Source: Marsupella aquatica
Lineage: Eukaryota; Plantae; Marchantiophyta
Length of the DNA stretch: 64,000 nucleotides
NCBI GenBank assembly: GCA_973895155.1
Contig: OZ316896.1
Coordinates: 19,890,754 to 19,954,753, forward strand
Direction of reading: 5' to 3'
Part shown: positions 15,387 through 60,535 of the stretch, in pieces
How the letters are laid out: every line of letters begins with the position of its first letter
Position numbering within the stretch: the stretch's first letter is position 1
Notes under the pieces: model-generated
Told to the model about the DNA's origin: nothing
What the model saw: the letters and a program-made list of their open reading frames with translations, nothing else
Database searches by the model: none
Made by a program: the position numbers and the translations under genes

Positions 15387-16176
15387 CACCGTGGAAGAAA
15401 CAGAGAAGGCCTACAGATCACAGCAATTCATTCAAACGGGTTCCAAGATACAGGGGATCTGAGGAACGTGCCAGATTAGACTATTGCACAATGAGACCCG
15501 GAAAGAAAAATGTAACAAGCATCGACAATGATGAATCAGAATTGTGAGCATTGAAGCTGGGCATGGAGGCGAGAGCAGCCGTCGAAGAGGAAATCAACCC
15601 TTCCTCATCCATTCGTACATAGTCTGTGGTACAGAATTCTCTTTTGTATCCTGATAAACTGTCTTAGGATTCGATTTTGTATCCTGATCAACTATGCCAA
15701 TTACCTAAGTATCCTGATAAAATATATTAGGTTTCAGGGTTGCTTTATTGTGCCATTTTGCTTTGGCTTTTGGGGACTTTGGGTTTATTTGTCGCCCCTT
15801 GATCGATGGGATCTTTCGCCTTTTGGGGTAGTGTCTCCTGGTTGGGCGCTCCTTGTTCTATAGCAAACTGTTCTTTGGCAGTTTGCTATATACATATAGA
15901 TAGATATAGATATACCCTTTCCTTGGAGACAGTGATGAATCTTTGATCTTGAACTAGTCTGATACGATCTTAAACTCTGCTTAAACTAGTCTGATACGCG
16001 TTTCTTAAATAGAGAATAAGCCAAAAACAAATACTGCAAAATGAAGAATTAAGTGTTATTCCCCTTCATCTTGCCCACATCCTTGTTTATTGTCCACCCA
16101 CATTTACACACAGTTTTGAAGTTATTGAAAGTTATGAAAATCATGGTCTAGAGGCTTCACTGTAGACCTTAGCCCT

Positions 16177-23782: not shown

Positions 23783-25367
23783 GTATTTCAGTGTGTCTTA
23801 TTAATGACTCTTATTCAATAAAAACCATAAACTTAGGAAAAAAAGACACAAGGGGAACTTAAGACAGGATGTGCTGACATTTCTTAGAATCATTTCTCTC
23901 ACTCATGAGTATACTTAAAAGCGGTAGAAAATGAAACCCTTAGTTTTCTCTCTAGGACTTAACAAAGTTTACAAATTAAGGCCTTAGTTTTCTCTCTAGG
24001 ACTTAACAAAGTTTTCTCTCTAGGACTTAACAAAGTTTTCAAATTATACAAATTAAGGGGGCTGCCAAAATAAATTCAAAACACTATAAAATACCAAAAA
24101 TTTAAAGGGGTCCAAAAATGAATTAAAATTCTATGTGATACAAAGGATGCCCCTTGTTAAGGTACATTCAAATAAAAATTCATGATACACAAATATGAAT
24201 AAGACAAAACATGAGAGTTGGATTCACCATATAGCAGCTTCAAAAATTTCTTAAAAAAAACACTGCTTCTCTCCCTATAGGGTAGTCCCCCCTTGTGGCC
24301 TACCAGTGCATATTCCAAAGTAGCTCCTATCTTGTGTTGGATGAGTCTACTTTTGGCTTGGCATTCAAGGCCAAAAACAAAAGAAAAACATTGAAAAATA
24401 AAGCTGCACACTCCCATAGCCTGAGCCCAAAGCCCTTTGACTTTGTCCCCTTTAAGAGAGAACAGGGGAAGGTTCTCACGAATAGCCCGGTCTCAAGCGA
24501 GGCCCATCCCACAGATCCACCCACGACTCTGTTCCCGAGAGCTGCCATGAAGTGTGCCTCAATTACAGTCAAGCATTCCATTCCATGATTCCATTGGGCA
24601 GTTCATCAGTGCAATCTTCCAAGTCTCATGGCAAAGGGTATTCCTCGACAGGTTAAGAATCAGTGGATTTGACCTTTGCGCTGTGAAGAAACGATGGACG
24701 CTTTTCTTGAGCAATTTCCATGCAAGCCGCGATTCAGAATGAGAACTACGGATCGAATTTGCTTTCTCGTCCTCTTGCATTGGGCACCGTGTTCTTCCTG
24801 GAAGCACCAAAGCCGTGGCTCTCAATCCAGGCCTCTCCCTCCCTGCACTAGGTTTGCTACCGATCGATGTTGGCCCACCTTCTACTGGGTCAATTGGAAA
24901 CAATTGTTTGGAGTTTGGCGTTTTCCTCCTTCTTTTCCGGAGTGAAGATAGCCAGTTTGTGATTAAAATAATGCCTTGAGACAAGAAAGAAGTCGAGCGC
25001 ATGACGCAGAGTCAGCTTCACCGAGCAAGCCTCGTGCTGTGGATTGAGTGCCCATGAAGCTTGGAATTTGTCTAGGTTACAACTTCTCAACAACTGCGAT
25101 GGAGAAGAAGTCGAAAGCTCTATACGTTCCACCTTAGCCTCACAAGTTCTCCCACTGAACGTTTCATCTGACAATCGAACATCAACATTCTCTGTCTGTT
25201 CCCTGTGAACGTTCTCATTAGCCTGGCTGAATGGAAATCACGCCTTACAACCTGGTACAGGAGTACTTCGATCTATGAAATTCTTCCGAATTTTGATGTT
25301 CTAGAAATTTATCATCCAGGAATACGAGAGAGCTCCAGCAAATTAGAGTACTGGTTTGGAAGCGACG

Positions 25368-28084
25368 ATGGGGAGGAGAAACGCCACGCCCAAGGCTGCT
25401 GCCGCTGGAGTTTCAGCACCACTGCTGCTGCTGCTGCTGCTTGCGTGCTCCGTGATGATGTTCTCGGGAGGCGCAGCAGCAGCAGAGAAGAGCTACACGA
25501 AAACGTTTCGATCGCCAGGCTTCAAGCAAGGCTTGGGGGATGTGGTCGACGATTTCTACGTCGTAGAGATGCCGACGGGCCATATCGCGATTACCAAATT
25601 TGACGCTGAGGTTGTGGATGTGGATGGGACGCCGATCCCTCTGCACGAGACGTATCTCCATCACTGGATTCTGGTGCGTTACCACGTCCCGAAGGACGCC
25701 GGAGGGGAGGGGAAGGAGAAGGAGCGCAGCATCCAGGTCCCCAACGCTGGCGTTTGCCAGAATGCAGGCCTCCCGCAGATGTTCGGGCTGGGCTCGGAAA
25801 CCAGACACACGAACACCGCGGTCCCACAGCCCTACGGAATTGTGGTGGGCGACCCCGAGAGCATTCCTGACGGACACAACGAGGTCTGGCTTATCAACGT
25901 GCATGCCATCGACACTCGGGGTGTCATGGACGTCCGGGGATGCACGGAGTGCGTTTGCGATCTGTACAACGCGACCGTGGACGGCGATGGCAGGCCACTC
26001 GCGGCTGGTTATGAAGGGGGCCTGGAGTGCTGCAGAAACGGGATGCACTGTGCTTTGCGGCCAGAGTTCCAGCAGGACAATGGCAATGGCAGCAGCAGCA
26101 GCAAGAGGACTCTGTTCATGGAGTACACCGTCACGTGGGTGGATATGTCGGACGAGGTTATTCCCGTGACCGTTTATATTTTGGATATTACCGATCGGAG
26201 GACCGGTGTCAACGACGAAGATGAGGATCATGGGTGTCAGGTGAGAGAGTAATCTTTCATTCTTCCATCCTTCTGCACCAGTGCTTTCATTGGGCTCTCT
26301 CATTTTTTAGGCAATGTTCATCGTCTTCGTGTACTCTTTGTCCCTTGCTGTATTCGAGGTTTTGGAGATCCTAGACTGAATCTATCACTTCATCCCTTTG
26401 GGTCCCACTCGTACTCGAGGCTGAGGGAGTGGCCTTCACAATCTTTTACACGTAGAATTGAAGTGTTGTACTTGAAGCAATGTGTAGGAGGTCAAACACT
26501 CAGAAAGTGAGCTTACACAAGATTCTTGACCTTAGAAACCTTTGATTCATTTCCTGGTCCATCCAACATTTTTGTCTCAACCCTCTGTCCCTTACCCTTT
26601 CCTGGGTATCAGCCACTATATGAATTTTTTTTCCATTCAATTTGTTGTTTCCGGTTAGGGTCCATTGGTCTTAAACTTAGTTCGATTCAATTTCTTCCTC
26701 TAGTAGATATCTGTGGATTGAATACCGTGGATTCTTTCTGCTTGTTTCCGCTAACAGGCAGCTGGCAAATTGTTACGATCCAGTCGATTATGTTTCTGGC
26801 TCAATGTCATCGTCTTATTGTTCCGAGCGAATGCTATGCTTTTTGGTGTTATGGCACTACTGGGTGGACATTGTCAGCCCTCTCTGGTTCTATCTTTCTT
26901 CGAATTGTTTTCTTGAGTAGAGGTTTATCACATATCGAGGGTTGGATATCGTTTTTGCTGCAAGTTAGATTGAGACGATTTCTAGATTTTGTCCAATTAT
27001 GATCCAAGTTGTAAGGAGACCGAGTCCTGGGGTGTACAGGTTGAGTACACTGTGCCCAAGTGCGCTGCAGGAGCATCCGAATGCATCCACATTGCAGATA
27101 GTGCTGCATTCTTACCTGGTGGAGGCGATGTAATTTACGCAGTTGCGCATCAACATTCGGGCGGCATTGGAAGTACTCTTCACAACGAGGTATGGTTTCT
27201 GCGCGTAGATGTCCACTTTGTTCACGTTGGCCTTATAGTGGTGATTCAGAAACAACTGCATCCCAGGCAAGTCAATAGGATTTGCAGGATTAGGTTAATT
27301 TAATATCCAAGTTCATGCATACAGGAGCACTTCCAAATTGGCATTCAATAAATCCGTGACTCAACTCCTTAAAGTTGAGTTTCAACAATTCCTCTGGTAT
27401 CTGCTGTGATTGCTTTCAACTAATTTAGCGTGGATATACAGTTCATATGTTGACTTGGATTCGTGGTTGGACTCGATAGGATGGCGAGGAGATCTGCTCG
27501 TCGTTTCCCATTTATGGGGAAGGTAGTGAAGCGGGGAATGAAGCTGGATACATTGTGGGAATGACCACTTGCTACCCTGAGCCTGGCTCTGTGAAAGTAA
27601 GGGCAGGAGAGAAGTTGCAGATGAGATCCTTCTACAGCAATGAGGAGCGGCACACTGGTGTAATGGGCCTATTTTATCTCCTCGTTGCCGAACCTCAATC
27701 GGTTCCACGGAAGGTCAGTGAATCAATTCCGTTCTATTTCCGTTCTTAGCACCCAAAATGTCAATGAGTGGATTCGAGAAGAGATTATCGGCTCTTGGAG
27801 ACCATAAGTTTCTGAGAACTGAGCCAATAATGGCAAATGTGGACAAGGTCGAAGGAACTCTTCCATCATGTTTTTCTACTTTTTGCCGTGTATTGCTGCA
27901 TCCTAGTTGTCCCTTCTCCTAAACTTGACCGCTCAAATCTTTGCAGCCTGCCTTTCTTACAATTATGATGAAGCATACAAATATGATTCTGGTGGCGGTG
28001 ACAATCATGGCCGCTGGTGTCTTCATCCATGTGACAGTCGCACGACTCCGAAGATCGACAGGAGCCGTGTATCAACGCGTATGA
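25368..28084 (+). CDS. Stress up-regulated Nod19 (SURNod19)-family protein with signal peptide and C-terminal TM helix
   Basis: Exons 25368-26240 (PLHETYLHHW, FGLGSETR, NVHAIDTR, GCTEC, GGLECC), 27040-27189 (VEY ... AHQHSGGIG), 27480-27713 (ICSSFPIYG ... GNEAGYIVGMTTCYP ... HTGVMGLFY), 27947-28084 (hydrophobic tail, YQRV*). All are phase-0 GT-AG splices. Confidence 0.92.
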
Positions 28085-36263: not shown

Positions 36264-37779
36264 GAATATAAGGGAATATTGGATAAATAGGCTGTTTTTG
36301 GATGGACAAGTTGTCATTTGTAGTGTCTTTAAAAAATTTGTAACTTTTCATATTTAGTTAGATATTTGGCTGGGCTTACCAAGGTTAATTTTGGAGTGTC
36401 TGACACTTGTTTACATCCAGTAGTATTTGGCTAACATTACTAGTCCACCAGGAGGTATGCAAGCAACATGAGTAATTCACTATTGTATTTGTGGTGGCTT
36501 GTTAAAATTCCAGGGTTGATGGCCTATGAATCACCATATTTAAAACTGAAATGAAAGTAGAATGACCATATATCTTTACCAGATATCCAAGACTAACATT
36601 GTAAGGACTGACCAAGTCAGTTTGGGAAACCAAAATTTTACTAATTCTTAGGCAAATGGGTGGCCAGGGCCACTCCTGCATGGGACCCTTTTGTAGCTGA
36701 GTGTCATGAAACTGAGAATAAACGATATAGTCAGTACACCTTATCCACAAATACAATTTTTTTTACAATAGGCTTGGTCACCCAAATTAGCTGGACTAAC
36801 TAATTCTAATTCTGTGCAACTCTAAATGGGATATACTATTAACCAATAGCGACGATTAGAAGTAATAAGATTGATAGCAATGTTGGGAGTCAACTCAATC
36901 CTAAACTATCCTAAACTATAATACAAGCTTGCGCCTTTTTATGAAGTGGTCGTCATTCAAATTTGGAGTGTCCAAGAAATATTAATCATGTAGAAGAGAA
37001 AGAATAAAGATTATATTAAATTTAGTGTGCACCCAAAAAATAATGAATGCATTCCAAACAAGAAGGGAATCAAATGGGAGAGACAAAAGGAGGGAGCCAA
37101 TGCTCGAGCCAATGGGGCACACAAAACAAGAGAGGGAATGTACATACATGAGTATCAAGGAGGTTCCTAACCCATACACATGAAATATAAAAATACATAA
37201 TATATATGATATTATATATTATTGTAAGTATCACAATATTACAAAATATAATAATGATAGTAATTCAACTAAAATAGGTTAATTAAACACAATAAATTAG
37301 ATGACAAGGACAATGTCAAAAACTATAATAAAATTTTACTTTTTTTTATAATAGTCATTCAAATTTGCAATATCCTAAAAATGAAAAACATGAAAGAATG
37401 ATTTCCTTTATGAATGAAATGGAGAGCAATGTTTCCCAAAAAATGAATTGAATAGTACAAAGAAAATAAGGAGGGTCTCTAGCAATGCAAGAGTATCAAG
37501 GAGACCTCCCTTTACCCGTATAATCTTGATCCGGTCCCTTTACAAACTAAAAAAAGTGACACTCAATCTTGAATGTTCATCAAAACATAATTTTCTCCAC
37601 ACTGTAACATCTATCCTTACACCCCTTCTAAAAATAAGTTCCTGCCCAAGTTACCCTTTAACTTTCCCATACCTGCCACAATGAAAAATTTAATCAAAAT
37701 TTAATTAAATTTATTTATATATAAATAATTCTAATTTTTTTGAAATAATTTCAAATATAAATAAAATAGAGATAAAATA

Positions 37780-38340
37780 TTTTCTCATCTTGACATCTTT
37801 TCTTCATATTAAGATCTTCTCACCTCAAGATCTTTGCTCACCTTGACATATTTTCCTCACCTTGAGATCTTTTCTCACCTCGACATATATATTAGATTTG
37901 TCTCATTTTGCCATATTTTTCTCACCTGGCCATCTTTCTTCACCCTCAACATTTCTTTTCATCCTGTCATCTTTTTCTCATCTCGCCATCTTTTCTCTCC
38001 TTGACATATTTTCTCACCTCAGAATGTTCTTCTCTAACTAGCTCAATACTCGTGCGTTGCACAAAAGATGTCATGTCGGCCAAGATGTCCTTAAGACAAA
38101 AGATGTCGTGTCCGGAGTCATGTCGGCCCAAGATATCGTTAAGAAAATAGAGGTCGTGTCCAGGGTCGTGTTGCCAATGATGTTGTTATGTAAAAGATGT
38201 CATTAAAAAAAAAAGTTGTGTCGCCAAAGAGGTCTTTATGCAAACGATGTCATCAAGTAAGAAGATGTCATTAAAACAAAGAAGTTGTTATGTGACAGAT
38301 ATCGTTAAGAAGATGTCAAGTAAAAATATGTCATTAAAAA
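37780..38340. repeat. Left-end repeat complex of the 38-51 kb unit
   Basis: CATCTTTTCTCACCTT-type ~20-bp repeats (37780-38035, direct counterpart at 50136-50250), followed by AAGATGTCGTGTCGGCCAAGA-type repeats (38036-38340) that are the reverse complement of the repeats at 50300-51091. Confidence 0.8.
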
Positions 38341-39424
38341 GAGTCGGGCAGGGAAGAAGGGAAGAGGGGGAGAGTGGGGCGAGGCAGGGCTGCCCCGGGT
38401 AATTGGGTTGGGGAAGGAGGGTGGTGGGAGGTTGACCGCAAGAATGCGGCAGTCTACGGTTGGCGTGCGGAGCAAGGCGGTAGGGTGGTCGCCCCACTCG
38501 TAGTAGAGGCTGGCCGCACAACATTTTACTTGCCTCTGCTCGGTGCTTTTGCCGCAATCAGATGGAAGTTGACCTCAGGAGCTGGTGTGAGGGCCATTTT
38601 TGGTCTCTATTGCTTTGGTTTTTTTCCATACTGAATTTCTTACACCCAAATTGGCCCTGTAAATTCAAATGACGACCATGGCAAAAAAAGGCACAACACC
38701 TTATTATAGTTTTTGATGTTGTCAAATGTGGTTGTCCCTTTATATATGTGTCCCAAAACCCTGTCACCCCAGCCAAGAGTGGTTTGGCCCCCAACACCTT
38801 GTTATCTCATCCAAATGTATATATTGAATTTGGCAAGTAATCACTATATTCATTAAAAGTGGAATTATAAAGAAGATTTGGAAATTTGGGCATTTAAAAA
38901 CACACTTTTAGGCATAAGAATTGTAAATTTGAAGGATGAAAAATGAAAATTTAAGCATCATGAATTATAAATTTGGGGCAAAAAAATAGACATTTGGGCA
39001 AAGAAAATATTAATTTGGATAATATTAAAAAACATTTGGGTGATAAAAAGTGTTCATTTGGTTGAAAATAGATAGAACATGTGTAATAACACATAAGCTT
39101 GGATAGCATCTATACTCAAAACATCTAGCTTGGATAGGATCATTATCTAAGCAACAATGAAATGCTAGACAAGTTAAATATCTTATATTCAAACTAGGAT
39201 GACATCCAAGTAACTTAGAACTGCCATCATTTTCTAGAAATATATGTACTAAGACAAAAATAACAATTTTTATCAAAAAGTCCATTCAATAACTAAGAAA
39301 GATCATAGAGTATTTGATTGCAAGCCTTGTTCTCTCACTTACTTTAGACAAATGCATGGAAATTAACTTGACCCTCCTACCTACAAGTCATTACATAGTG
39401 GACACTTGTGACCACTCTATCACT

Positions 39425-42400
39425 CTACTCATCAATACCTTCCATGTAAGTTTTGAGAGTTTTCAAAACATTCTTGGGAATTGTCAAACCTCTATCCATA
39501 ATATTTTGTTCTTTGGCACCTGACTTAAACCCATACATTGCAGAATTTGCAAATTGCCAACTTTGAGTGATAGTGTTAAACCCAGGATCTAGCTCCCAAG
39601 TCTTAGTGGTCTGAAAGCAACGTTTGTATCGAACATCATCCTTTGCATCATGCTCACCATGTTTAGGCCTCCACCATTGCACTTGGAACATAGGAGCATA
39701 CCGCTTAGGAATGCTACTTAGGTGAATGCTCTTAGAAAACCTTGAAGAAGACCCTTCACTAAATTGCAAATCTAGTGAAGAAACCTCATGGTTTGGATCC
39801 ACACCACCCAAAGCTCGAACTAACCAGAAACGCCCTTTGCCATTTTTTTGCTCCCATTCATCCTCTGGACGTAAAAACACAAAGTGACCCTCTTGAATAT
39901 CTTGTAGGGGAATCCAACGTGCAAGTTCTCGCTCTTCTCGTGCACCAACGAAGGGTGCAGCTTGACCTTCCATCTCTTCCATGTACTCATTTTGAAGGTC
40001 CATCATCTCTGAATTTTGAGTAGGTTCACTTGAAGGTTGAGAGGTCCCCAAAATCACCTTGTAACCTGTGCCATGGTTAGTCTTTGGCCAGAAATCAGTT
40101 GTCAATGACAATTGTCTTTCTCCCTCCCCTTCTATTGTAAGTGCCTCAGAGAGTGCCATAACAAGCCTCTCCCAATATTTCACCAAAGGAAATCTCTCGC
40201 GGTATGCTGCAGAGGTCTCATCCTTGCAACTTTTCCTCAAGAAATCAATGTAACGATTAAGGAATGGGATGATTTCCTCGACTTTCTTTTGTACCTCCCC
40301 CGATATAGGTTTTGCAAATGGTTGACCCTCCGGTAAAATGAGCGTGTTTGTGATGAGATCAGTTCTCCAAATTGACCTCCCTGTTGCTGGAAGCCAAGGT
40401 TGTTTGACATGTGCTTTATATTGATACACTGGCACATTATCCCTCATGGAGAATAGAAATGCCACTGGTTTTGAGTGACCTTCAATCTCTTTCACTTGGA
40501 AAGCCTTCAAATAGTGCTTGTAAGATGCAACCTCCTGAATCAATCGTGGTACGGGATGGATGCTTTCACACTCCCAAACCTCAGCCATCAACGCAAGGAG
40601 GGTAGCAACCTCTTTGTACCTGACCTGTTTGGATACTTGAGAAAATAGTGCATCCACATCCTCATGGGTGTGGCCAACCATGAGGAATGACATTTGCACA
40701 GTTTCAAACACCCCCTGCTAACAAGCTCGCTGCAAAATGCCATCACATATTGATTTTTATTATCTTTTCCTGAATTGTCCATCTGCAGTGTTAGGTGCCT
40801 TGGTAAGGGCTTGAAAGAGCTCGTAGTCTCAGGATCAACTCTAGAACCAGCATCTGTTGTGCTGGTTTTTTGGCTCTCCTGACCGTCATCAAGGCCTTGA
40901 AACTTGAGAATTGAAACATTTTTGGGTTCCAAGTAACCCGCTTGAAATGCTTCAAAGTCCAAAAGAGACTGAAATATTGGCCTAGTTGCGTTCCAATTGA
41001 AAGCTTCAAGCATGTCTCCCGTTTTGTCTCCAGTGTAATCCTCCAAATCTCGAAGGCATTTGGCCAAAGATGTCACAGTGAAGTCTGCATCTCCAGGCCA
41101 AAGGCCAGTCAAACTAAAGTGTGCATACACTCCTGGATCCCTTCCATGGGTTAACATCCCAGTAAGGGCAATGGGTAGAGGTTGACCACTACCAGAGAGA
41201 GATTTTGGAGTGGGGACCAATCTGGGGATCCAAGTCTTGGCTTGGTCCATCTTATCATGAATAATGCAAAGATAGTTTTGAGGATCCTTCTTTGCAAGAA
41301 CCCTATGAGCATAGTAAACATATCTCCTTGTCATTTGTTCACGAAGATGTCGTGCTCTTTTCTCTTCAATCTCTGCACGCTCTTTTTTTCTCTTCTCCCG
41401 CATCAATTGATCTTTGAACTCAGTGCAAAATGTGCACTTGGCAAATGCACTGCCCTTGTGAAAGTCAAAATTATCAAAAGAATTTTTCCAGATGTTGTAC
41501 ATGGTAACTTCAGTAACCTTAGCATAGCCGTCCAATTCCATCTTTGCAAATACCTCTTGAAAAATCTCCTTCTTAGTGAAACATGATGGGAGTCGATATT
41601 CGACAGTATCGGTGCCGTTGGACCCACCATAGGGAAGATGTGGCATTGGTTCTCCATTTTGGATTAAAATGGACTCCAACAATGCACGAGCATGCAAGGT
41701 GCTTGATCGTGTCTTATGTTGCCCTTGATTTCCATGGAAACCAATTGTGCACCCAGCTTCGTACTGATTTTTGTAATCATAATACTTTGCCGTACTAAAC
41801 CCATGCATTTTTATGAACGCATCCTTACAAACCACACGTCCCTTTAGAACAAAATATCCTTTTCTCTTGACTTGGTCTTCTCTACACCCAAAAAGATTGA
41901 AGATATGACTTGTTTTGTTGTCACTTGACATTCCATGAAATTCCCTCCTCATTGCCTCCAAGTCCTCTCTTGGCATGTTCAAGCAACACTTTAACCTGCA
42001 ACAACCTTCTCTTTGGATGGAATCAATGGACTCCTCGGTGATTTTCAAAAGCGCCCTTGATTGCAAATGTTTTTTTTTTCTCCTCCAGATCCACTTTGGT
42101 CCTTCTAATGAAATTATAAGGTCTTTTTGGAGGTTTCCCATCACCATCCAAATCCGGGTCGCTCTCATTTCGACCCGATTCTATCCACACATGTGAACCT
42201 TTCTCAAGGATATCCCCGAGAAACATTTGAGATGAAATCAACAACAAAGATTTGATTTCCCACCTCACCAAACCTGGAGTACCAGCACGGATATTTGGAA
42301 ATAATGCGGGATCGTTGATATTCACAACAGCTACACCCACATGCTCTGGACCAAGAAGTTCATCATCAACAACACCTGCTTCAAAAGGAACTATGATAAC

Positions 42401-42982
42401 CCCTGTCGCAACCTTACGACAACGAGAAACATCATACAAGTCAACTTCCTCTGCCATCCAGTTGGAACGCATTGTAAAATCTTTCAATGGAAGATCCTTA
42501 AACAGGTTTGCACCCGGGTTTGCACCAACAAACATGCCAGAACCTCGAATAGAGCCTTTTCTTGAAACATCAGCAACATCCCACATTACCCAAGTCTGCA
42601 TTGCCTCTTGCACTGTGTCAGCTCCAGGATGCGGATACGGTAGTTTTCTATTTCCCTGAACAACCTTTGATATTTGTATACTGACACGGCCAACACCGAG
42701 TCGTTCACTATGACAAGTGTCCATTGGATTGGTATTGAAGACAACTCCTTTTGATACAAGTTCATCTAAAATGAACATCTCAACCTCCTCTCCTTCAGCA
42801 AGGTTGCCTCCTTTACCACCAACATCCATTTCGGAACATCCTTCATCCCCATCCACTGGAGTAGGAACACCATCATAGTAGATTTTTTTCCTTGCTCTGT
42901 AGCCTCGCTCCGTGGTGTGGTCTAGCTATAGGCGTTCTTGTATACTAGGCTGCCATGTGTCATCTAAACGTTTGTGAGGCAT
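39425..42982 (-). CDS. DUF7869-type / Sola-like DDE/D transposase (~1,130-1,190 aa reconstructed) split by two homopolymer frameshifts
   Basis: ORFs 42023-42856, 40588-42168 and 39425-40711 join at A10 (42070-42079, EKKK|HLQ) and G5 (40711-40715, SRG|VFETVQMSF). Motifs: CCRLKC, KCTFC, IIHDKMDQAK, LQMDNSGKDNKNQY, FLMVGHTHEDVDALFS. The start is either ATG 42982 (with an in-frame TAG at 42926-42928) or ATG 42829. Confidence 0.8.
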
Positions 42983-42988
42983 TTTTCA

Positions 42989-45900
42989 ATGGCTACTTCC
43001 TCTAGTTCTGATGATTCTACTAGCACTTCTAGTTTTGGGCAGTCCCTGAACTTTGATTCTAGTAAAATATTTGAGTATGATTCTCAAGACACTTTACTAA
43101 AGATGTCGGTGGAATCCGCTTTGGCCGCCTCAAGGGGATTTCATATCACAGTTCCACGTAAGTATGATTCAACAATTGATGCAAGTTAGTCTTTGAAGGG
43201 TCGCTCTTAGAGCGACCCTATCTTGCCTAAGATTTGTCGTTGTTATTGGTTGGATGTTGATTTAAGTTTTCCTAGGAGCGACCCAACTTTGTTGTTGGTT
43301 GGACGTTGATTTAAGTTTTCCTAGGGTCGCTCCAGGAGCGACCCAACTTTTTTGTTGGTTGGACCTTGATTTAAGTTTTCCTAGGGTCGCTCTTGGAGAG
43401 ACCCAACTTATTTGTCGGTTGGACCTTGATTTAAGTTTTCCTAGGGTCGCTCCAGGAGCGACCCAACCCACATGTTTGTTGATGCAGACCTTGTCTCCAG
43501 CTCGCTCTAGGGGCGAGGCAACACAGAAGATCTCTTGCTTTAATGTTTGTCGTTTCAATTTGTTTTTCCAGGAGAACAACTTGGATCCCCAGAGTTAAAT
43601 ATTATGGCCGAGGATGTCAAGGACTTTATTTTCCCTGGACAAGATAAGGCAGGATTTTCGTGGGCACTTGAAGTAGGGATCATGGAGAATGACTTGTCGA
43701 TGATTTGTATCAAGGCAATCACTGCTGAGACAATGAACGACAAGAAGATAGTTGCGTTGGGCCCTGTGGTCCTTGTAAATTGCAGTGATAACCGCAATGT
43801 TACAATCATTATTGAATCCAGAGAAAGATCTCAGTGGATGAGACTTTACTTGCCAATCAAGATGTACTCGTCAATTATCAACGTGGAGTGGATAGCACGC
43901 TCGGAGGCTAGTATTTGTTCAATGGGATTTCTTCCAGATGGGTTCACTGCAGAGGATGTTCTTGAGAGGCATGGAAGATTCAAATTGAGTGGGGTTGATG
44001 TTGTCTTTGGATTCCTCTTTGTGAAGCGGTACATGCATGATCATCCGGACCTTATAGATCTTCCTAACACATGGGTTGTCCAGAGGATGATTGAAACAAC
44101 ACGCTTTTCATATGAGCAAGCAATTGATAAGAGTTTTATTTTCTCTGATGAGTTTGACGAAGATGCTTGCATGAAGTGGATTTCAACTCAAAGGAAGAAG
44201 GAAGAAAAGCATCGAGGTAAGGGGAAGATGAAGATGAAGGCCAAAGAAATGACGTCGGCTGAAACACAAAAGAAGAGAAAACAAAGAGAGCCAAGGAGTG
44301 AAGGAAGTACTAGAGGAAAAAAGGCGGCGTTGAAGAAGAAAGATAAGGACTCCGACAAGAAGCCCAAGAAGAAGGCCAAGATTGGAAAATCAAAGCCCGT
44401 GTCAGCGTCAAAAGCAAGGTTGGTCTTGGATCCGGAGGATGATACATGCCCAACAGATGCACCAGAGGAACGAGATGTATTGGAGGGGCAGAAAGCTTTG
44501 CGGAACATCGAGCAATACTACACTTTTGGAATCAGGGAGGTTTTTGAAATCCCGGTTAAAAGTATTCTTCCGCCTACTGCAGTTTTTGTGTATCGGATGT
44601 TCAACCAGGCTCATGCCTTAGAGATAGCAAAATCAATGATGAAAAACCCTGGCCAGGAACCACATGTTGCAGATTTGATTCCATTTCTAGAGCGCACTAA
44701 GCAGTTGTTACATTTTGACAATACCGCACGCGATCGGAAGCAATTTTTGTTTGGTGTTAAGAAGCAAGAGATACAATTTCTTGCAATCAGTGGGCAACAT
44801 TCCACAAAGGCTCCACAATGGATTCAAGGGTGGGCAGAGAAGGATGCCAAGCTAACTGATCTTGCTAGCAAACTCCAATATCGGAAAGCGAGGATCTTAT
44901 CAAACCTCACTCCAAGGGCAATTTTGGTCGAGCACTCGAGCCTTTCAAATGCAGTAAATCAGACCATGCAGTTTAAGTCTTGTTTTCTAGAGACAGTTGT
45001 TCATGCGAGAAGGCAATTTGATGAATGTGGGAAACCACCGCGTCCAGGAATTGGAACAAACCAAAGTACAGACAACCAGAAATACCAGGTAAACATTTTC
45101 ATTAGTTGGAACTGTAGTTTAATTTTGCCTCACTCTTAGAGCGACCCAAATGAAATTGAATGATGAATACAATGATTGCCCCAACCATTTTCATATGGCT
45201 TTGTCATTTTCTTCGCCTCGCTCTAGGGGCGAGGCAAAGAAGTTGAAGTTTCTAAGTTTAAACATCTAACATGTTTTTTGGTGGATGAATGTAAATGCAG
45301 GATTGGTTTGCCCTCGCAAAGATAACAATGGGAAAGTCGAGCTTGAAAGCCATTTTTTGGTTGCTCTTTGCTGAGGATAAGCTTTTCCATTTATGGCAAA
45401 CTGTTTGTTGGGATTGGTTGGCAGGGAAGCTCCCTGGCGGGGCAGGAGAGTATGGTGGGCCGCGGCCACTAAAGCTGGTCACGCCAACTCTTTTTAGATG
45501 TTTTGAAGGGGAGATCAATTCTAAGGATATCATTGATATATTGACCGCGGTTTATGAGAAGAAAGCACTTCTCAAGAAAGATGCCTCCAACAAGATGGAT
45601 CTGGTGTCAATCCCATATATGGCTCATACCATCAAGGTAATGACTAAATTGAAGCAAGTCATTGTTGAGTACTTTGTTGAGAAGCACAAGGAGAAGTTTC
45701 CCGGGGGGACATCGTGGGCTTCGGTGGTCAACATCATGCCGGCCTTGGGATCTCAACTTGAGCTGACAAAATTGCGAAGAGCAGCTGGGGAGGTCTACCT
45801 TAGCAGTTTATTAAGGAAGAACATTGTGAAAGAGGCTTTCCCTCAAAGTCTAATGGTGAGATTAGACGGGTTGTACTGCAAACAATTTGGTGGAGTTGGG

Positions 45901-48900
45901 CGCACACGAACAGAGCCTTTCTTGACGTTCTTTAGTGAGAATCTAATGAAGACAACCACGCCAGAGTTATTGGAAGAGGCGACGCCAATGTGTCCACTTG
46001 CAATTGTTGATTTTAGTAGGGCACGACAACATGAATGGACAGATTCGGAAATTTTTGTATTGCTCCAATATATTGTGGAGTTGCCAAGGAATACAACCAT
46101 TGTAGTTGTCATGACTACTCATCCAGGGCCACTTCCAGCCAACATCTTAAGTGCCCTAAGGAAATTAGGACATGAAAAGCATTTAGCCATCCATGTTGAA
46201 TACGGGAGTTATGATCGGGAAGATCGCCCAAATCCGCAGGGCTTAATTTTTACAGGAGCGATTGAGCAGGTCATTTTTGCTGGAATTACAGGTGAAGACA
46301 ATTTTGATTGGAATCAATTGTTTAAGCCAGAGTTCAATTCAAAATTTAGTTTTCACCCCGATGTTGACTGTGATTTCAATATTGAAGTGAAGGCTGACAA
46401 GCAAGAGAAAAGCAAGGGAAAAGAGAATGAGACAGAGGAGCAGTCTCCCGCATTTGATATGGCAGATTTATTGCGGCAAGCTCCAATGTTTGAGATGGTC
46501 AGAAGTCGAGGAGGATTTGTCAATCCGCATGCCAAGCCCCGACACATGCTCAAAAATATTATTGAATGTTTTTCCTGTGAGGGGGAGATTGTCCTCGATT
46601 TTTTTCAGGAGGGCAGGTTTTGAAGGTGGCCTTGTTGGCATACCGAGATTGTTTTGTCTATTCAGACACTTTGCAAGAACACCATTTCACCCAAGCATAT
46701 GCAAGGGTTTTGTGCAACAGGATTCCCTCCCTTATGAAAGAGCGGATGGGAGTACATGGTCCTAGGAGAGCTCATCTAAGTGTTCTTTGCGGGCCTATGG
46801 ACAACCCCCAACCGGGCCCTCAGCGAGTTGACCTTGAGGATGGTGAGTTGCAGCATGATGCTGGAGGTTCAAGTCCTATGGTAGAGGAGGATTTTGGCGG
46901 AAATTGGGATGCTCGAGCAACAGAAATGGTTGGCATTACTACCTACGGTGTTGAAGGGCTACCTCAACTCGACATAGTGATGTCGGGTCGCCCTGAGAGC
47001 GACCCTCCATCAAATCCTCTCAACCCTGAAGTATCAAAATTGCATCCCGAGAGACCGCAGGTATCGTGCACATTGGATGCAGGTTGGCAGAATATTGGGG
47101 CCACTACACCCACCACGGACCTACAAGTTGGTATTGCAGAAGCGATTGAAGACAACCTTCCACTTGGAGAGACAACAAATGTTGAAGCTGAAGAGGCAGG
47201 TGCTTCAACTTGTTCCGAGTCTCCTCAATTTTGTTCGTCAGGGAATAAATTGGTCTTCACAAGGATGTCAAGCGGAAGCCCCATAATATTACGCTTGTCT
47301 CAAAAGTCTGGATCTGAGATAGGTAGAACAGGATATATGAAGACAGTCCGTCATGCAACTCATTTCATTTGGAGAAATGGACCTAAAGTTGGATTGAAAG
47401 AAACGTTGGAGGATGCGCCGAAGTTAATGGTCAAACCTGATTACATAATAGACAAATTGAGATTGAGTCCAGTGTTTGCACCGCCAACATTGGTGGAGCA
47501 ACTTCCTGTTGGCGTCAATTCTGATATCCAAAGTGATCTAGGTGATAAAATGATAGATGAATATGGGTCATTTAGTAGTGGAGGTTAATATTATGGTTTC
47601 GTTCTTCTATTTTTCACAATAATCTAAAATATTATGTTTGGAAATCATATATGGACAGACCAAAGTTTTGTCATAGCATCTCTTCCATCGAAGGATATTA
47701 TTGGTCTACCTTCAGCAAGCGGTACCCTGGTCCAAGACAAAGCATTTGAGCAAGGTACTTCTACATTGATATATCAAAATGCTTTGACATTCAAAAATGA
47801 TATGTTTGTTTTCCCCATTAGGTCGGGTCGATCCAGGTTCGACCCTAAGTTCTTCTTTTATATCTTTTAGATATAATTTTGATTCATTTGGATCTTTGCA
47901 GATTTCACTCCTAAATTGCACTCTGATATAAGAAGAAAACTCTTGATTTTGGACCTGAACAAAATTTGTTGGGATTGCGTCAAAACAAAAATCTTGGGAC
48001 CGTTAAGATCTACAACAACTGTGCGGGGTGTGCATTGGGGGAGACGGGGTGGATTCAATTTCATGTACGTGGAAAGGCCAGGGTTGCACCAATTTTTGGA
48101 GGTGGCTTTCAAAGGTTTTGATGTCGCATTGTGGACTTGTGCGGGGAGGCCAAGAACTAATGAAATGATGAATTTGATTTTCAAAGAAGAGGAGCGGAGG
48201 CAATTTAAATTTGTTTTCACACAAGAAGATGCTTTTGATACTGGCATAAAAAGACCGGATGTAGCAGATGGGAAAACAAATATTATGTTGAAGGATTTGC
48301 GTGTGGTGTGGAGTCGTTTTGGAGACAAGTATGATGATACAAACACTCTACTTATTGATGACTCTCCAGTGAAGGCTTTTGCAAATCCACAGTATAGTGG
48401 TTTGTTCCCAACTCCCTTCTCACACATTGCCGAGAGTGACACTTTTCTACCAGAGATACTTTGGCCATTCCTTAGAAAATTGTGGAAGGCTTATGACATC
48501 CGACAATATATATATCTGTCAACAATCCACTTTGGTCATTTGTTAATATAAATGATGACCGTGAAAGTAATGCTGCAATCTATGATTTACTTTCCCATAA
48601 GTGGGGAAGTAAGATTTGGCGTTCCAAGATTGAGTATACCATCTTGGATGTCACTGGAGATGAGATATGTTGGGAAGTGAGGGATATGGTACAATCCTAC
48701 CCTACATTTGAGAACCTGACCAAAGATGATATGAAAGATGTGGTCAACAACTGTTTGGGCGAGTCTTATGCAGGTCCCTTCAGAGAAAATCCTCGCCGAT
48801 TTGTCTGGGAAGTTCTAAAGACTAGGGATCTCACCTCTAAGTTTAAAAACCGTTATCCCAAAGACACTTGCACTCGTGACAGACTATATGACCCAAATGG

Positions 48901-48976
48901 AGAGCGACTCACTTGTTCAAATCAGTCATGTAGACATATTCATGGAGGCATAGAATTTGAAATTTTAGATGATTAA
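42989..48976 (+). CDS. Multidomain cargo protein (~1,712 aa reconstructed): Lys-rich region, ParB/Srx-like domain, N6_N4 (beta-class) DNA methyltransferase-like fold, FCP1/NIF-like HAD domain, CCCH zinc finger
   Basis: Proposed exons 42989-43157, 43572-45088, 45301-47583, 47659-47754 and 47902-48976, all GT-AG and phase-compatible. After +1 T at 46599-46605 and -2 nt at 48506-48515 the total is 5,139 nt (1,713 codons). Motifs: EIPVKSILP/YRMFNQAHALEIAKSM/FLAISGQHS; HAKPRHMLKNIIECFSCEGEIVLDFFSGG; LLILDLN/ERPGLHQFL/KDL/NTLLIDDSPVKA; C-x14-C-x4-C-x3-H. Confidence 0.65.
43197..43519. repeat. 60-bp tandem array built around the palindrome GGGTCGCTC-N3-GAGCGACCC (intron 1 of the cargo gene)
   Basis: Palindromes at 43198-43218, 43324-43344, 43384-43404 (1 mismatch) and 43444-43464, a half site at 43276-43284 and a variant at 43499-43519. 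The period is exactly 60 bp for three copies. Confidence 0.92.
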
Positions 48977-50076
48977 TCATTATGTTTCTGTACATTGTAG
49001 GACACAAGATTGGAGTCATGCAATCATTTTTCTATTTCACAGGTCATAGAACTACTTTGGACTTTACACTAGCTTGACCATTGGAGTAGGATCGACATTA
49101 TGGCTAGCCAACCTTGAATATATGTTATGATAATTGAGATGATTAATCTCACTTTGAATTTAATCATGAGTTTTTGACCAAATGATACATGTTTGTCACT
49201 TATCTATTTAATTTCAAATACAATTAATATTAATAATTTCTGTATTATGATTAATTGATTAAAATCAAATTTGGAGTGCAAAAGTGTAATTTTAAACCAA
49301 AAAGAGTGTATATTTAGTCTTGAAAAATTGTTTATTTGGAGCAAAATTAATGGACTTTTTAGAGACAAGAATGTAAATTTGAGGATCACAATCTGGACTT
49401 TTAAATTTCCAGTTTTAATGAATACTGTGATAGTATATTTTTTCTTATAAAATGATTTCATTCATATGAGTACCACGGTGAATGAGTGTATACACTTTCC
49501 TTGCATTGCATGCACATCAGGTGTACATTGAGGCAGGGTCAATACAAATAACACAATGGCCTGGGAGGGATTAGATAAAAGAGTGTATTTTTGAATACTA
49601 TGATGGCATCAAAAGGAAGTACTTTACCTGCTAAAGTGATGAGGAATATCAAGAAGTATTCTGTTCCCTTCATATTTTGCTGTGGGTTTATTTTTATTTG
49701 TTCTCTTAGCTTTGCTTTGCATATTTGATTTCTTTCACTTGGCTTGGAAATGTAAATTTTGAATGACCGAAACACTTCAAAAAGTGGCGCAAGTGTGTAT
49801 TATAGGAGTTAATTTGTAATTGACATAGATTATCATGGGGGTACTTGATATGAATGTCTAGGTATAGAAAGTACTATGTCTATGCATGGATGGTTTCCTA
49901 TGCATTGATAGTACTATACTTATATGTCCAGAAAGTACTTGATTATTGTGCATTGGTATTCCTGGCATTCCCTTTATTTCTTGATTGGAAAACGTGCACG
50001 CTTTACTTCACACTAAACATTATTCAATTTTGGTTTATTCCTTCTGTTTGTGAGATTCTTTGATTTTTGTGCCCTT

Positions 50077-51091
50077 CAAATTCAAATGACGACCACTGCA
50101 TAAAAAGGCGCAACCTTGTATTATAGTTCTTGATGTGACATCTTTTTCTCACCTTACCATCTTTTCTCTCTTTGACATATTTTTCTCAGCTCGAAATGTT
50201 TTTCTCTTATGGACATCTTTTCTCACCTTGATATATTTTGTCACCTTAACATGCATCATTTGTGCAATGCACAGGTATGAGGCCCAAGATGTACTTAACA
50301 ACATCTTTTACTTCACAACATTTTTGAGTAATGACATACTCTATCTATTGACCATTTTGTACTTAACAACATCTTAATACTTAACAACATTTTTGGCATA
50401 ACGACATCATTGCCGGCATGACATCTACTTACTTGACACAATTTTTTACTTGATGACCTTTCGGGCAACATGCCATCTTTCGCAAAATGACTTCTTTTTC
50501 TTAACAACATATTTTTATTTCATGACATCTTTCACATAAGAACATCATTCTTGGGAAACACAACATATAGTTCTCTTAAGAGCATTTTGGGCGCCACAAC
50601 ACTTTCCTCTTAGCAACATCTTGGGGGACACTACATCTTGGACGCACAACATTTGTTTTCTTAACAATATCTTGGGCGCCATGATATCTTTATTTTAATG
50701 ACATTTTGGGCGACACAACATCTTTTTTCTTAACGACATTTTTTGTGCAATGCACGGGTATTTTCCCTCAACAATGTCTTGGCCGACACGACATCTTTTC
50801 CCTCAATGATGTCTTTGCCGAGACAATATCTTTTTTTCAACGACATCTTGGCCGACATGACAACTTTTTTTTCAACGACCTCTTGGCCAACACGACATCT
50901 TTTTTCTCAACGATTTCTTTTCTCTCAACGACCTCTTGGCCGACATGACATCTTTTCTCTCCACAACCTCTTGGCCGACAAGACATCTTTTCTCTCAACG
51001 ACCTCTTGGCCGACACGACATCTTTTTTTTCTCAACAACATCTTAAGCCGACACGACTTCTTTTGTGCAACGCACAAGTATTGAGCCAGTT
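50077..51091. repeat. Right-end repeat complex with Helitron-like 3' terminal hairpin
   Basis: ~35-bp units TCTTGGCCGACACGACATCTTTT..CAACGAC; TGTGCAA(C/T)GCAC motifs near 50261, 50744 and 51064; the last is TTGTGC-AAC-GCACAA followed by GTATTGAGCCAG|T. 50077-50136 also repeats 38660-38720 in direct orientation. Confidence 0.8.
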
Positions 51092-52170
51092 CCATATAAT
51101 TGAAGAGTTGGGTCCAAGCTTCAGGTAAATACTTGACTGGCCCCTCTAATGAAAGATATTCCTAACAAGCCCCTTTTCAAATATACTTAATGGGCCCCTT
51201 GTCCCCGTAACCCTTTCTCACCACCTGTCATATTTAATTTTTCCATTTTTTAATTATAATGTACTACAAACTTTATACGAGTCAGTCCACAAGATGTACT
51301 ATCTTTAGGAAGGTGAACCAATGGGATTAAACCCTAAAATCTACAGTACCACATTTCGTTTTATCGGAGATTTTCTAAACTCTAAACCTTTGCAAAGGTG
51401 CAAACATTCTTATAACTGCCCATTACAAAAGGGGAAATATTCTCTTCCACTAACCTTATACATACAACAATCATACTGAAAGAGTTTGGATAAAACATAG
51501 TAACATGGAAATGCAAATGCAAATTCCAACAATACATATGATATTACGCAAATATGGCCAATAACGTGATTGTTGTACCCTTTATATGCTTTGTGACACT
51601 TGCAAATTCTGTAGTGGAAGGTCTTGTCATGTGAAAATACTCGATAACGCTCGTTAGAAACAACGATGAGCAAGTACACCACATCCGCACCTATATTTGC
51701 AGCTTAGAGACGACCATTACTCGAGAGGCACTTTCTTAGATTACTAGATTAGACATGCTAACAGACGAGAGAAGCCAAGACCGAAACCCGAGATGAAAAC
51801 TTATTAACCGTCCACTAGAGCAACATTACAGCACCCACTCGCAGCATTTCGTGATGGAACGAGAATAGTCCACAATCATGTCGCGAACGCCCGCACAGTC
51901 AGTCAGTCCCGTGTAACGGGCACACAAATCAACAATGGAGCTCTCACCCCTTCTCTCAGTATTGGCTCGAGACACATAACTCACAACTACTCCAGCCTGC
52001 AATTCGCACTTGGACTGGGCCTCCATAATGGGTTTGCCGGACACCTTCATTCAATATCGTTCAATTCCTCCACACCTGGAGCTTCGTACGTGGCTCGAAG
52101 GAGCACGGGAAAGTACTGAGAGCCGTAGACTTTCCGCCATGAGTGGTTTTAATCTAGACAACTGACTCAA

Positions 52171-59629: not shown

Positions 59630-59840
59630 TGTTGAAAACGTGAACATACCATAATATGAACTAAAGGTGCAGAGACGATGAACCAATAAGTAGCGGCAGC
59701 TGCAGCCGGGAAGGAAGGGAATCAACGTCCAGGAGAGAGACCCTAAATCCGACAGCAGAGAGAGAGCCCGATAAATACGCGCTACACGACAAGATCAGAT
59801 CTTCCTCGTAACGGCAGGAACTTTCTACAAAGTTCCAACA
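59630..59840 (-). repeat. 3' LTR (211 bp) of the copia element
   Basis: Bounded by TGTTG ... CAACA. On the minus strand it is preceded by the polypurine tract CGAGAGGGGG (59841-59850). The adjacent 5 bp TGTAG (59625-59629) is the predicted TSD. Confidence 0.85.
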
Positions 59841-59872
59841 CCCCCTCTCGAGGAAGATTTAGTCTGAGAGGG

Positions 59873-60535
59873 ATGTCGATCCAAACAGGAGAAATGAAGA
59901 CCGAGACAGGACGGGCAATGTGTCGTGCAGTGTTAAGAACGTTATGGACAGTGTTAGAGGCAGTGGGGTTGCTGCTCCAAATTGCCCACAAGACAGTGAA
60001 GCTGTTGGCGCGCTTGGTGAGAGAACTGGAGCCGAAAGATGATTGTGGTCATGAAGAGATCAAAAAAGTGGCAGGTGGCAAGAGCGAAGCAGGAGATGAA
60101 GCCCCCTCTGATGCATGGATTTCTCCACCGAAAGTGCCGAAGAGTGTGCTGGTAGCCCCCTCTGAGTCCGAGCAGACTCCAAGGAAGAAGCACACACAGG
60201 AGGAGATGGAAGTCGACCAGCAATGGAAACCATGTAGTAAGGAGCAACAGTATGCGGCAGCGTCGATTCTGAGGAGATGGCCAAGTAAGATGAGGGTTCA
60301 GCAGAGGGCGGAGGAGCGAGAGGGGAGCCGGATTGCTGGAGGAGTAGCGCCGAAGAAGTACTATGCAGTAGCAGTGGGTCGAGTACCTGGAATATATGGA
60401 TCGTGGGCAGATGCAAGCATGCAGGTGACGGGTTATTCAGGGAATTGTCACGAGGCATTTAGAACATTGGTAGAGGCGGAGCAGTTTATGAGGTATCATC
60501 GTAGAGCAGTAGAGTATGAGATAGATGAGCATTAG
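59873..60535 (+). CDS. Antisense extra ORF of the copia element, 220 aa, with C-terminal RNase H1 N-terminal / caulimovirus viroplasmin (hybrid-binding) domain
   Basis: ATG-initiated open frame between PPT and pol stop; KKYYAVAVGRVPGIYGSWADASMQVTGYSGNCHEAFRTLVEAEQFM fits the YAV..GR..GIY..W......V.GY.......F....EA..F pattern. Confidence 0.85.
   Translation: MSIQTGEMKTETGRAMCRAVLRTLWTVLEAVGLLLQIAHKTVKLLARLVRELEPKDDCGHEEIKKVAGGKSEAGDEAPSDAWISPPKVPKSVLVAPSESEQTPRKKHTQEEMEVDQQWKPCSKEQQYAAASILRRWPSKMRVQQRAEEREGSRIAGGVAPKKYYAVAVGRVPGIYGSWADASMQVTGYSGNCHEAFRTLVEAEQFMRYHRRAVEYEIDEH

Follow-up and report, generated by a model that had tools for sequence, protein, structure and literature searches.

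A Sola-like transposon in the liverwort Marsupella aquatica carrying an accessory gene with a methyltransferase-like fold that lacks the usual catalytic motif

Sola DNA transposons have terminal inverted repeats (TIRs) of 11-1124 bp, 4-bp target-site duplications (TSDs) and DDD motifs, are known from moss, and in some cases carry accessory genes, such as Fanzor in Sola2 (PMC10741241, PMC3627910; here and below, published systems are described from the accessible parts of the sources cited). Most of them, as far as these sources go, are 2-9 kb long and have no ParB-methylase cargo. In the brown alga Ectocarpus, Sola1-1_Ec32 has on the strand opposite its transposase an accessory gene with ParB-like and N4/N6-methyltransferase domains, and its best reported match is the transposase of the moss element Sola1-1_PPa (PMC12477816). 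In Bostrychia and other red algae, Plavaka (EnSpm) elements have accessory genes, PAG2 and PAG3, with ParB-like and PF01555 methylase domains, for which it was proposed that the elements bind their own DNA and whose modules are reported to move between transposon superfamilies (bioRxiv 10.1101/2025.02.11.637652). Here we describe a Sola-like transposon with a related accessory gene in a stretch of 64,000 nucleotides from the liverwort Marsupella aquatica (contig OZ316896.1, positions 19,890,754 to 19,954,753 of the forward strand), hereafter the window, whose numbering we use throughout. An earlier note on this DNA had offered the locus as a candidate new element type. Since Sola1-1_Ec32 has this pairing, the architecture is largely one already described; what is new relative to the Ectocarpus case is the land-plant host, the HAD/CCCH tail and the dead-looking catalytic sites.

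The likeness to Sola1-1_Ec32 extends to several features. Both are large Sola-type elements with imperfect TIRs and a 4-bp TSD that tends to end in A (AGTA in the window), and in both the accessory gene lies within the ends, on the strand opposite the transposase, and has an N4/N6-methyltransferase-type domain, joined in the window to a part that is only weakly recognizable as ParB-like. The brown-algal element is 21.5 kb long, with a 282-bp TIR, AACCG termini and a 1,104-aa accessory protein for which the accessible text reports no HAD or CCCH domain, whereas the window element, compared by description only, is a 10.6-kb land-plant element with a 32-nt TIR, ATCAC termini and no catalytic motif. 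It falls within the Sola ranges for TIR, 4-bp TSD and DDD-type motifs. With PAG2 and PAG3 it shares transposon-borne ParB-like and methylase domains and tandem inverted repeats, which in the red algae stand beside the ParB gene. Plavaka, however, belongs to another transposase superfamily and pairs ParB with a 2-oxoglutarate-dependent oxygenase and the methylase with a SET domain in separate genes, while in the window element the ParB-like and methylase-like parts are in one protein. A literature search, with subscription journals and Repbase outside its reach, found no land-plant report of such an element.

The window element is a defective copy of 10,592 bp at 38840..49431 (no strand assigned), delimited by its ends and by contig depth. 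Its left TIR (38840..38871, + strand) pairs with its right TIR (49400..49431, − strand) over 32 nt, imperfectly, at 84% complementarity; the pair scores 39 against 24.1 +/- 2.3 in shuffled sequences, and 0/500 shuffles reach 39. The termini read ATCAC and are flanked by the 4-bp TSD AGTA at 38836..38839 and 49432..49435 (both + strand). The chance that two random local 4-mers agree is P 0.008, and this duplication is known from one insertion, for which CAC termini with a 2-bp AT duplication are an alternative parse. In sequencing run X1, a contig of 349x depth has its first base exactly at 38840. In a subfamily about 33% identical in protein, homology at loci L010, L015 and L017 stops at sequence similar to the window TIR, and an end pattern built from the window and L010 matches five places across 378,611 bases, at these three loci and at both window ends; of these, L015 and L017 are not matches by construction. 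When 18 related loci were searched generically for TIRs, no pair was convincing. From this evidence we are highly confident of the Sola-like identity and of the ends as mapped. The earlier note's proposal of one DNA transposon carrying both genes is upheld by a TIR/TSD pair that encloses both and by multi-copy depth, with limits moved inward from 38036 and 51091 to 38840 and 49431. Two other assignments were tried and set aside. The 45-nt inverted match at 38036/51091 is not a TIR: it has no flanking duplication, and each arm is a Helitron-like 3' end. Membership in CACTA was rejected because there is no 3-bp duplication and the catalytic domain is DUF7869, the CACTA-like points being a CACTA string at 38842 and a TNP1-like domain in transposase homologues.

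The surroundings show a three-level nesting, in which the Sola-like element lies inside a Helitron-like element, H2, that itself lies inside H1, a member of the same family in the opposite orientation. H1 (36909..51089, + strand, in the parts 36909-38037 and 50134-51089) has a 5' TC and a 3' CCAG and carries 18- and 35-bp tandem arrays. H2 (38038..50133, − strand, in the parts 38038-38839 and 49436-50133) has its 5' TC at 50133 and its 3' CTAG at 38038, sits between A and T, and has a second 5'-like end at 38716 (−). Measured by the Helitron features in PMC10741241 (5' TC, 3' CTRR, A/T site, no TSD), H2 has them all, and H1 ends in CCAG, not CTAG. In both arms of the 38036/51091 match, C[TC]AG comes after a short hairpin; the matching ends that begin with TC are at 36909 (+), 38716 (−) and 50133 (−), and H1 is the source of the right-hand end first assigned to the transposon. 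The 3' hairpins, with stems of 13-15 nt where 16-20 bp are expected, stand at the expected place and are no stronger than shuffles (z -0.06 and -1.14). Taking H2 out puts the tandem array of H1 back in phase, and a joint that skips exactly 12,096 bp, as an empty site would, was seen in 3/4 runs, although its short side of 28 nt makes it weak. H1 would have come first, followed by H2 into the H1 array and then by the 10,592-bp element into H2. Beside these ends we observed extra 5'-like ends near 37316, 38716 and 49808, extra hairpins at 50262 and 50747, and another high-depth repeat immediately right of the H1 end (51090-51275). The TC/CTAG ends, A|T site and empty-site joint of the 12,096-bp unit would also suit a capture of both genes as passengers, the mobile unit then being the Helitron-ended 12.1 kb at 38038-50133 or the 13 kb first delimited. 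However, the inner TIR/TSD pair is independent of the Helitron ends, the high-depth contig begins at 38840, contigs of the Helitron parts have other depths (132-154x on the left, 46-247x on the right), and the Helitron-ended stretch has no Rep/helicase gene; we regard such a capture as very improbable.

Contig depth points to a family of many copies. Long contigs of run X1, which may itself come from the source of the window, are all more than 99% identical to the window and cover 38840-39506 at 349x, 42008-42874 at 286x, 43438-45039 at 309x, 45010-45380 at 293x, 45351-47404 at 309x and 47375-49409 at 314x. This plateau of 286-349x takes in the transposase start, the entire accessory gene and the HAD tail alike and compares with 10-21x in the unique flanks, roughly 15-30-fold, a ratio of contig depths that is not a copy number. 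Runs X2 and X3 have the same pattern at higher depth. The sequence data show a young multi-copy family that has likely multiplied recently. The accessory gene is not a single-copy host gene, as the first reading had held: its contigs are at multi-copy depth and it has many relatives. The family contigs are without the window frameshifts at 42070, 46598 and 48506 and have several hundred extra bases at 42873/42874, where a 1,399-nt contig aligns over 866 only. Because the contigs are free of these indels, the window copy is a defective member of a family whose accessory frame is open. The frameshift at 40710 is mended in contigs of X2, X3 and X5 and is not listed as mended for X1, which leaves an intact transposase unproven for the X1 family. 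In X5, a run labelled as another organism, both genes are covered and the flanks hardly at all, one piece having 3 differences in 493 nt. The near-identical X5 pieces over 38804-49581 could reflect a related species, horizontal transfer or contamination.

The transposase gene (39425..42925, − strand) is spread over three frames. DUF7869 exceeds the Pfam cut-off in two of them (E 1.9e-22 and 1.9e-15), and the acidic motifs HDKMD and Q[ML]DN are present in 15/15 aligned sequences and GHTHED in 14/15, the exception being the window row, which stops before the motif and has it in the next frame. The conserved acidic motifs together with DUF7869 mark the protein as a DDD transposase, and the Sola-like catalytic motifs first noticed here are thereby confirmed. 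We take DUF7869 to be the Sola1 domain, and the Sola assignment rests on this assumption together with the TSD. In the window copy the gene is broken by frameshifts near 42070 and 40710 and has lost its start through a deletion at 42873/42874; full-length relatives have 1,012-1,334 aa. The closest named relatives come from Calypogeia fissa (57-67% identical over the catalytic part) and Riccia sorocarpa (38-48%). PF03017 (TNP1/EN/SPM) is above cut-off in the N-terminal repeats of the Calypogeia homologue P0244. At the N-terminus (42026-42925, − strand; P0001, P0198, P0244) we observed two or three such TNP1/EN/SPM-related repeats (PF03017, and PF26133 in precomputed annotation), a domain typical of CACTA elements attached to a Sola-like enzyme. 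One related contig, L008:1-3880, folds back near 2105 as an inverted transposase duplication, perhaps an amplification artefact.

The accessory gene runs on the plus strand, divergent from the minus-strand DUF7869 gene, and the head-to-head arrangement first described for the two genes is real, with 678 bp between them in this copy. Exon 1 (43604..45088) starts with an ATG at 43604 and encodes 495 aa, comprising an N-terminal domain, a basic linker, and a ParB/Srx-like domain at about 44459-45073 with the core SGQHS. A 212-nt intron separates it from exon 2 (45301..47583), which encodes a helical domain, the methyltransferase fold (about 45931-46690), a disordered region and a conserved cap ending in DEYG; this junction agrees with the spliced liverwort gene models P0061 and P0018. 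A predicted micro-exon of 96 nt (exon 3, 47659..47754) joins exon 2 in frame to exon 4 (47902..48976), which encodes a NIF/FCP1-like HAD domain and a CCCH-like motif (48869-48943). In this computed splice path, the introns around exon 3 are 75 and 147 nt long, GT-AG, T-rich and of phase 1-1. The window copy has frameshifts at 46598 in exon 2 and near 48506 in exon 4; with these two indels taken as in the family, the summed length is 1,645 codons, and each exon piece is free of stops. We infer a four-exon protein of about 1,645 aa with the HAD exon spliced in. A search of 1.84 billion representatives with exon 1 gave 94 relatives at E<=1e-3, the methylase exon is 37-48% identical to its homologues, and the closest named relatives of the protein come from Calypogeia fissa (46-50%) and Riccia sorocarpa (27-31%). 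Structure comparison gave no clear fold for the helical domain ahead of the methylase (best Z 4.9), and a search of viral contigs found no relative of the cargo or the transposase. The first ~200 residues (43604-44250) form a conserved domain with no family match.

Whether the HAD tail belongs to this protein needs separate consideration. In the window, as in 4/4 exon-2 homologues, DEYG runs into a stop; no NIF domain is present in those fetched, and an in-frame ATG stands at 47634. This would suit a HAD/CCCH part acquired independently as a gene or gene fragment (Pack-type cargo), outside the same protein and without a role in the element. We consider this unlikely: an in-frame GT-AG splice path exists, the gap from stop to ATG is only 45 bases, the HAD frame is open in the family contig, the intron that precedes the HAD exon contains a palindrome of the element, and for three of the four homologues the source is a Logan/ENA contig of 4-6 kb, so that they are probably ORF (open reading frame) calls made without splicing. 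In our judgement, it is fairly probable that the tail is part of the same protein. Its NIF domain is recognized at E 2.4e-16, with the HAD part nearest to HAD-IIID (E 2.4e-10) and UBLCP1 (E 1.7e-7), and FCP1_euk at 0.008. In FCP1/SCP phosphatases, motif I is DxDx(T/V); in this copy it reads DLNKI, with DLN in place of DxD. The suggested role on the C-terminal domain of RNA polymerase II is doubtful, given this motif and the best models. The CCCH-like motif, with spacing C-x14-C-x4-C-x3-H, is a motif only and has no family match.

The core motifs of the exon-1 domain, R..n..hv and f.aisGQHS..A, are conserved among its relatives. The GQHS core resembles DGQHR, the motif of the ParB/Srx/DndB families; DGQH occurs in 5/61 motif matches and an arginine after GQH in 0/61. 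The domain matched no Pfam or NCBIfam ParB family, no PDB entry and no phage protein. None of the 60 homologues scanned has a Pfam ParB match, one of them meets DndB weakly (E 0.04), and 2/30 meet the PHROG family 'ParB-like partition protein', also weakly (E 0.031), which is the only family matched twice. An Atlas search with the window's ParB-like piece gave scores below 0.9 throughout. In the Atlas, the nearest neighbours of one ParB-like homologue include DUF3723 clusters, at a score of 0.94 with 157 features in common. DUF3723 is a cargo family of fungal Starships (bioRxiv 10.1101/2021.12.13.472469), and we treat this likeness as a lead only. The ParB-like identity is thus a weak assignment from sequence. 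Three Riccia models (R1sor_008738, R1sor_008624 and R1sor_000947) have the ParB-like and methylase parts in one polypeptide. Of the four domains with which the cargo had been credited, the methyltransferase fold and the NIF/HAD domain hold up, while the ParB domain is weak and the CCCH motif has no family behind it.

For the methylase-like part, N6_N4_Mtase is met at E 1.7e-4, under the Pfam cut-off, and a profile of five exon-2 sequences matches M.RsrI at E 9e-6. The exon-2 model has a pLDDT (predicted local distance difference test score) of 65 and a pTM (predicted template modelling score) of 0.56. It aligns best with CcrM, RsrI, M1.HpyAVI, MTA9, MboIIA, PvuII and METTL3, with middling Z of 5.7-6.5 and root-mean-square deviations of 4.3-4.8 over 125-142 residues, matches that agree in class. 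Foldseek gave no match at E<=0.001, and all 50 matches listed were chain B of METTL3-METTL14. The models thus point to a beta-class amino-methyltransferase fold fused to the ParB-like domain. D[FL]FSGG, motif I of the S-adenosylmethionine (SAM) site, lies near the C-terminus in 6/9 homologues (the models of the other three may end before it or skip it), aligns with DFFAGSG of RsrI and in the window spans the frameshift; the NP..KP stretch ahead of it is conserved. Known active amino-methyltransferases hold the target base with motif IV (PMC4738411). This motif, [DNSH]PP[YFW], is present in 0/10 cargo sequences, and where its strand can be located it reads DF[STGA]R or DLI. Because the catalytic motif is missing in 10/10 sequences and the ParB-type arginine in 61/61, the protein is likely a binder and not a writer of DNA marks, and we think it most likely that the methylase domain is inactive on DNA. 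An enzyme that still methylates N4C/N6A through an atypical catalytic site, marking the element's own DNA, would accord with the beta-class fold, with the conserved D[FL]FSGG and NP..KP and with the Ectocarpus counterpart, which is predicted to make N4-methylcytosine (4mC) or N6-methyladenine (PMC12477816). But known active enzymes hold the target base with the very motif whose place is taken here by DF[STGA]R or DLI, and MpDN4MT1 of Marchantia has TSPPY; we find this alternative quite improbable, and the DNA marking at first suggested is not borne out.

The same motif bears on the proposed route to the 4mC enzyme of Marchantia. MpDN4MT1a/b are active 4mC writers with TSPPY, encoded by host genes (bioRxiv 10.1101/2021.02.12.428880). 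The cargo shares with MpDN4MT1 and with bdelloid N4CMT a beta-class amino-methyltransferase fold in a eukaryote. It has no TSPPY-type motif, unlike MpDN4MT1, a spread by this route finds no support, and it aligns with bdelloid N4CMT (8s9n) at Z 5.3, no better than with bacterial N6A enzymes. Chlorophytes have N6A methylases fused to ParB-HTH (helix-turn-helix), and land plants have few (PMC4738411).

A palindrome, GGGTCG-N9-CGACCC (21 bp), offers a candidate binding site. It has seven copies with at most one mismatch, all inside the element, and none in the other 53 kb of the window, where two matches need two mismatches. Four copies lie between the genes (43198..43464, no strand assigned; hairpin z -6.7), partly as a 60-bp tandem array, and the others are at 42156 in the transposase, 46985 in exon 2 and 47825 in the intron before the HAD exon. 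Their confinement to the element, in both genes and between them, indicates that these parts belong to one element. We think it somewhat more probable than otherwise that the accessory protein binds them, a judgement from sequence. Four relatives (L004, L005, L010 and L012) have arrays of their own upstream of the transposase, unlike the window palindrome in sequence; these consist of 20-30 bp palindromes at L004:518-1588, L005:623-935, L010:1-252 and L012:7788-8657. Because these arrays occur without detected cargo, the transposase may be the palindrome binder: its N-terminal TNP1/En/Spm-like repeats would bind the palindromes as subterminal-type sites or for autoregulation, and the accessory gene would help otherwise, e.g. 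through protein contacts with chromatin or transposase. Homologous transposases do have such repeats, one over the PF03017 cut-off, and at L012 the sequence upstream of the transposase gene, without detected cargo, amounts to 9 kb. Yet three of the four contigs stop within 2 kb upstream, the left end of L012 was not found, and cargo may be cut off or lost in all four; the window palindromes also lie inside the accessory gene, away from the termini, and the red-algal arrays adjoin the ParB gene (bioRxiv 10.1101/2025.02.11.637652). We hold binding by the transposase to be rather unlikely.

Based on these findings, we propose how the element may work. The Sola-like transposase would move it by cut-and-paste. 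The ParB-like and helical domains of the accessory protein would bind the palindromes, which are concentrated in the promoter region common to both genes; the methylase-like fold would keep its SAM-site motif and add DNA binding, like METTL14 in its complex; and the HAD/CCCH tail would contact the transcription or RNA machinery. The likely outcome would be that the element's own promoter is kept active or its ends accessible, as with VANC of VANDAL, to which the likeness is in the model only, that of an accessory protein binding its own element (bioRxiv 10.1101/2025.02.11.637652). A self-binding role is favoured because the published algal parallels propose the same. As a whole, the reading of a Sola-like transposon whose accessory protein serves as a non-catalytic scaffold on the palindromes of the element is one towards which we lean with modest confidence, again from sequence. 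The anti-silencing outcome, drawn by analogy, is possible and held tentatively. The most specific version, in which liverwort-type Sola elements carry a dedicated anti-silencing protein made of three inactivated enzyme folds (ParB/Srx, amino-methyltransferase and CTD-phosphatase-like HAD) that reads a parS-like promoter palindrome and tethers the transcription machinery, we consider unlikely.

Several observations weigh against this proposal. Palindrome arrays stand ahead of the transposase in the four relatives (L004, L005, L010, L012) where no cargo was detected. The HAD domain is absent from every relative fetched, and the model from Calypogeia ends after DEYG. The single-sequence AlphaFold model of the ParB-like part has a pLDDT of 36, with no PDB match. 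In the runs examined, no contig reaches from one gene into the other, and for other copies the linkage is read from equal depth and common ends. Cargo was found by tblastn or HMMER in 0/38 distant metagenome transposase loci (29-50% identical), of which only 13 have at least 4 kb upstream of the match, several of these being the same locus twice and most decayed. Among 8 Riccia cargo models, none is 10 or fewer locus tags away from any of the 50 listed transposase models, which are cluster representatives only; the nearest is 19 away. In Calypogeia, one cargo model of three, CAM6082376, shares its contig with a transposase N-half, CAM6082369, that is 7 accessions away; the chance of this is 0.017-0.046 with the threshold chosen post hoc, and we call the linkage suggestive. 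The conserved head-to-head linkage across species for which the earlier note proposed a test is not borne out by these counts. The cargo is a widespread multi-copy liverwort family whose pairing with this transposase is established only in this element, and such sparse linkage fits a module that may change carriers, as reported in red algae.

The window is plant nuclear DNA, as seen from the host genes left of the element, which encode tRNA-dihydrouridine synthase (Dus; 13065-15410, − strand), SURNod19 (25347-26252, + strand) and a cytochrome P450 (31203-33632, − strand). The CpG observed/expected ratio is 0.41-0.60 in the element exons versus 0.60-1.03 in these three genes. Elsewhere in the window, a tandem array of ~97-bp units (5 copies, 94%) with nested shorter units lies just downstream of the P450 gene (29312-30313), diverged repeats of ~180-190 bp, several beginning AAACCCTAAACCC, occupy 9837-11137, and the end of an open reading frame at 59747-60535 (+ strand) is an RNase H1 N-terminal (Cauli_VI) domain (E 9.8e-17).

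Our results indicate no new element class and give no support for a transposon origin of the Marchantia 4mC enzyme. Since the land-plant proteins look catalytically dead, binding, and not methylation, would be the conserved job. If true, the anti-silencing reading would add a second, unrelated transposon that binds and protects its own DNA, on a chassis common to algae, animals and early land plants, and such a self-protecting protein would still be intact in a young family. This family is well suited to testing these ideas: its ends are mapped, its copies are numerous, nearly identical and open in the accessory frame, a single candidate binding motif is restricted to the element, and the liverwort host has tractable relatives.

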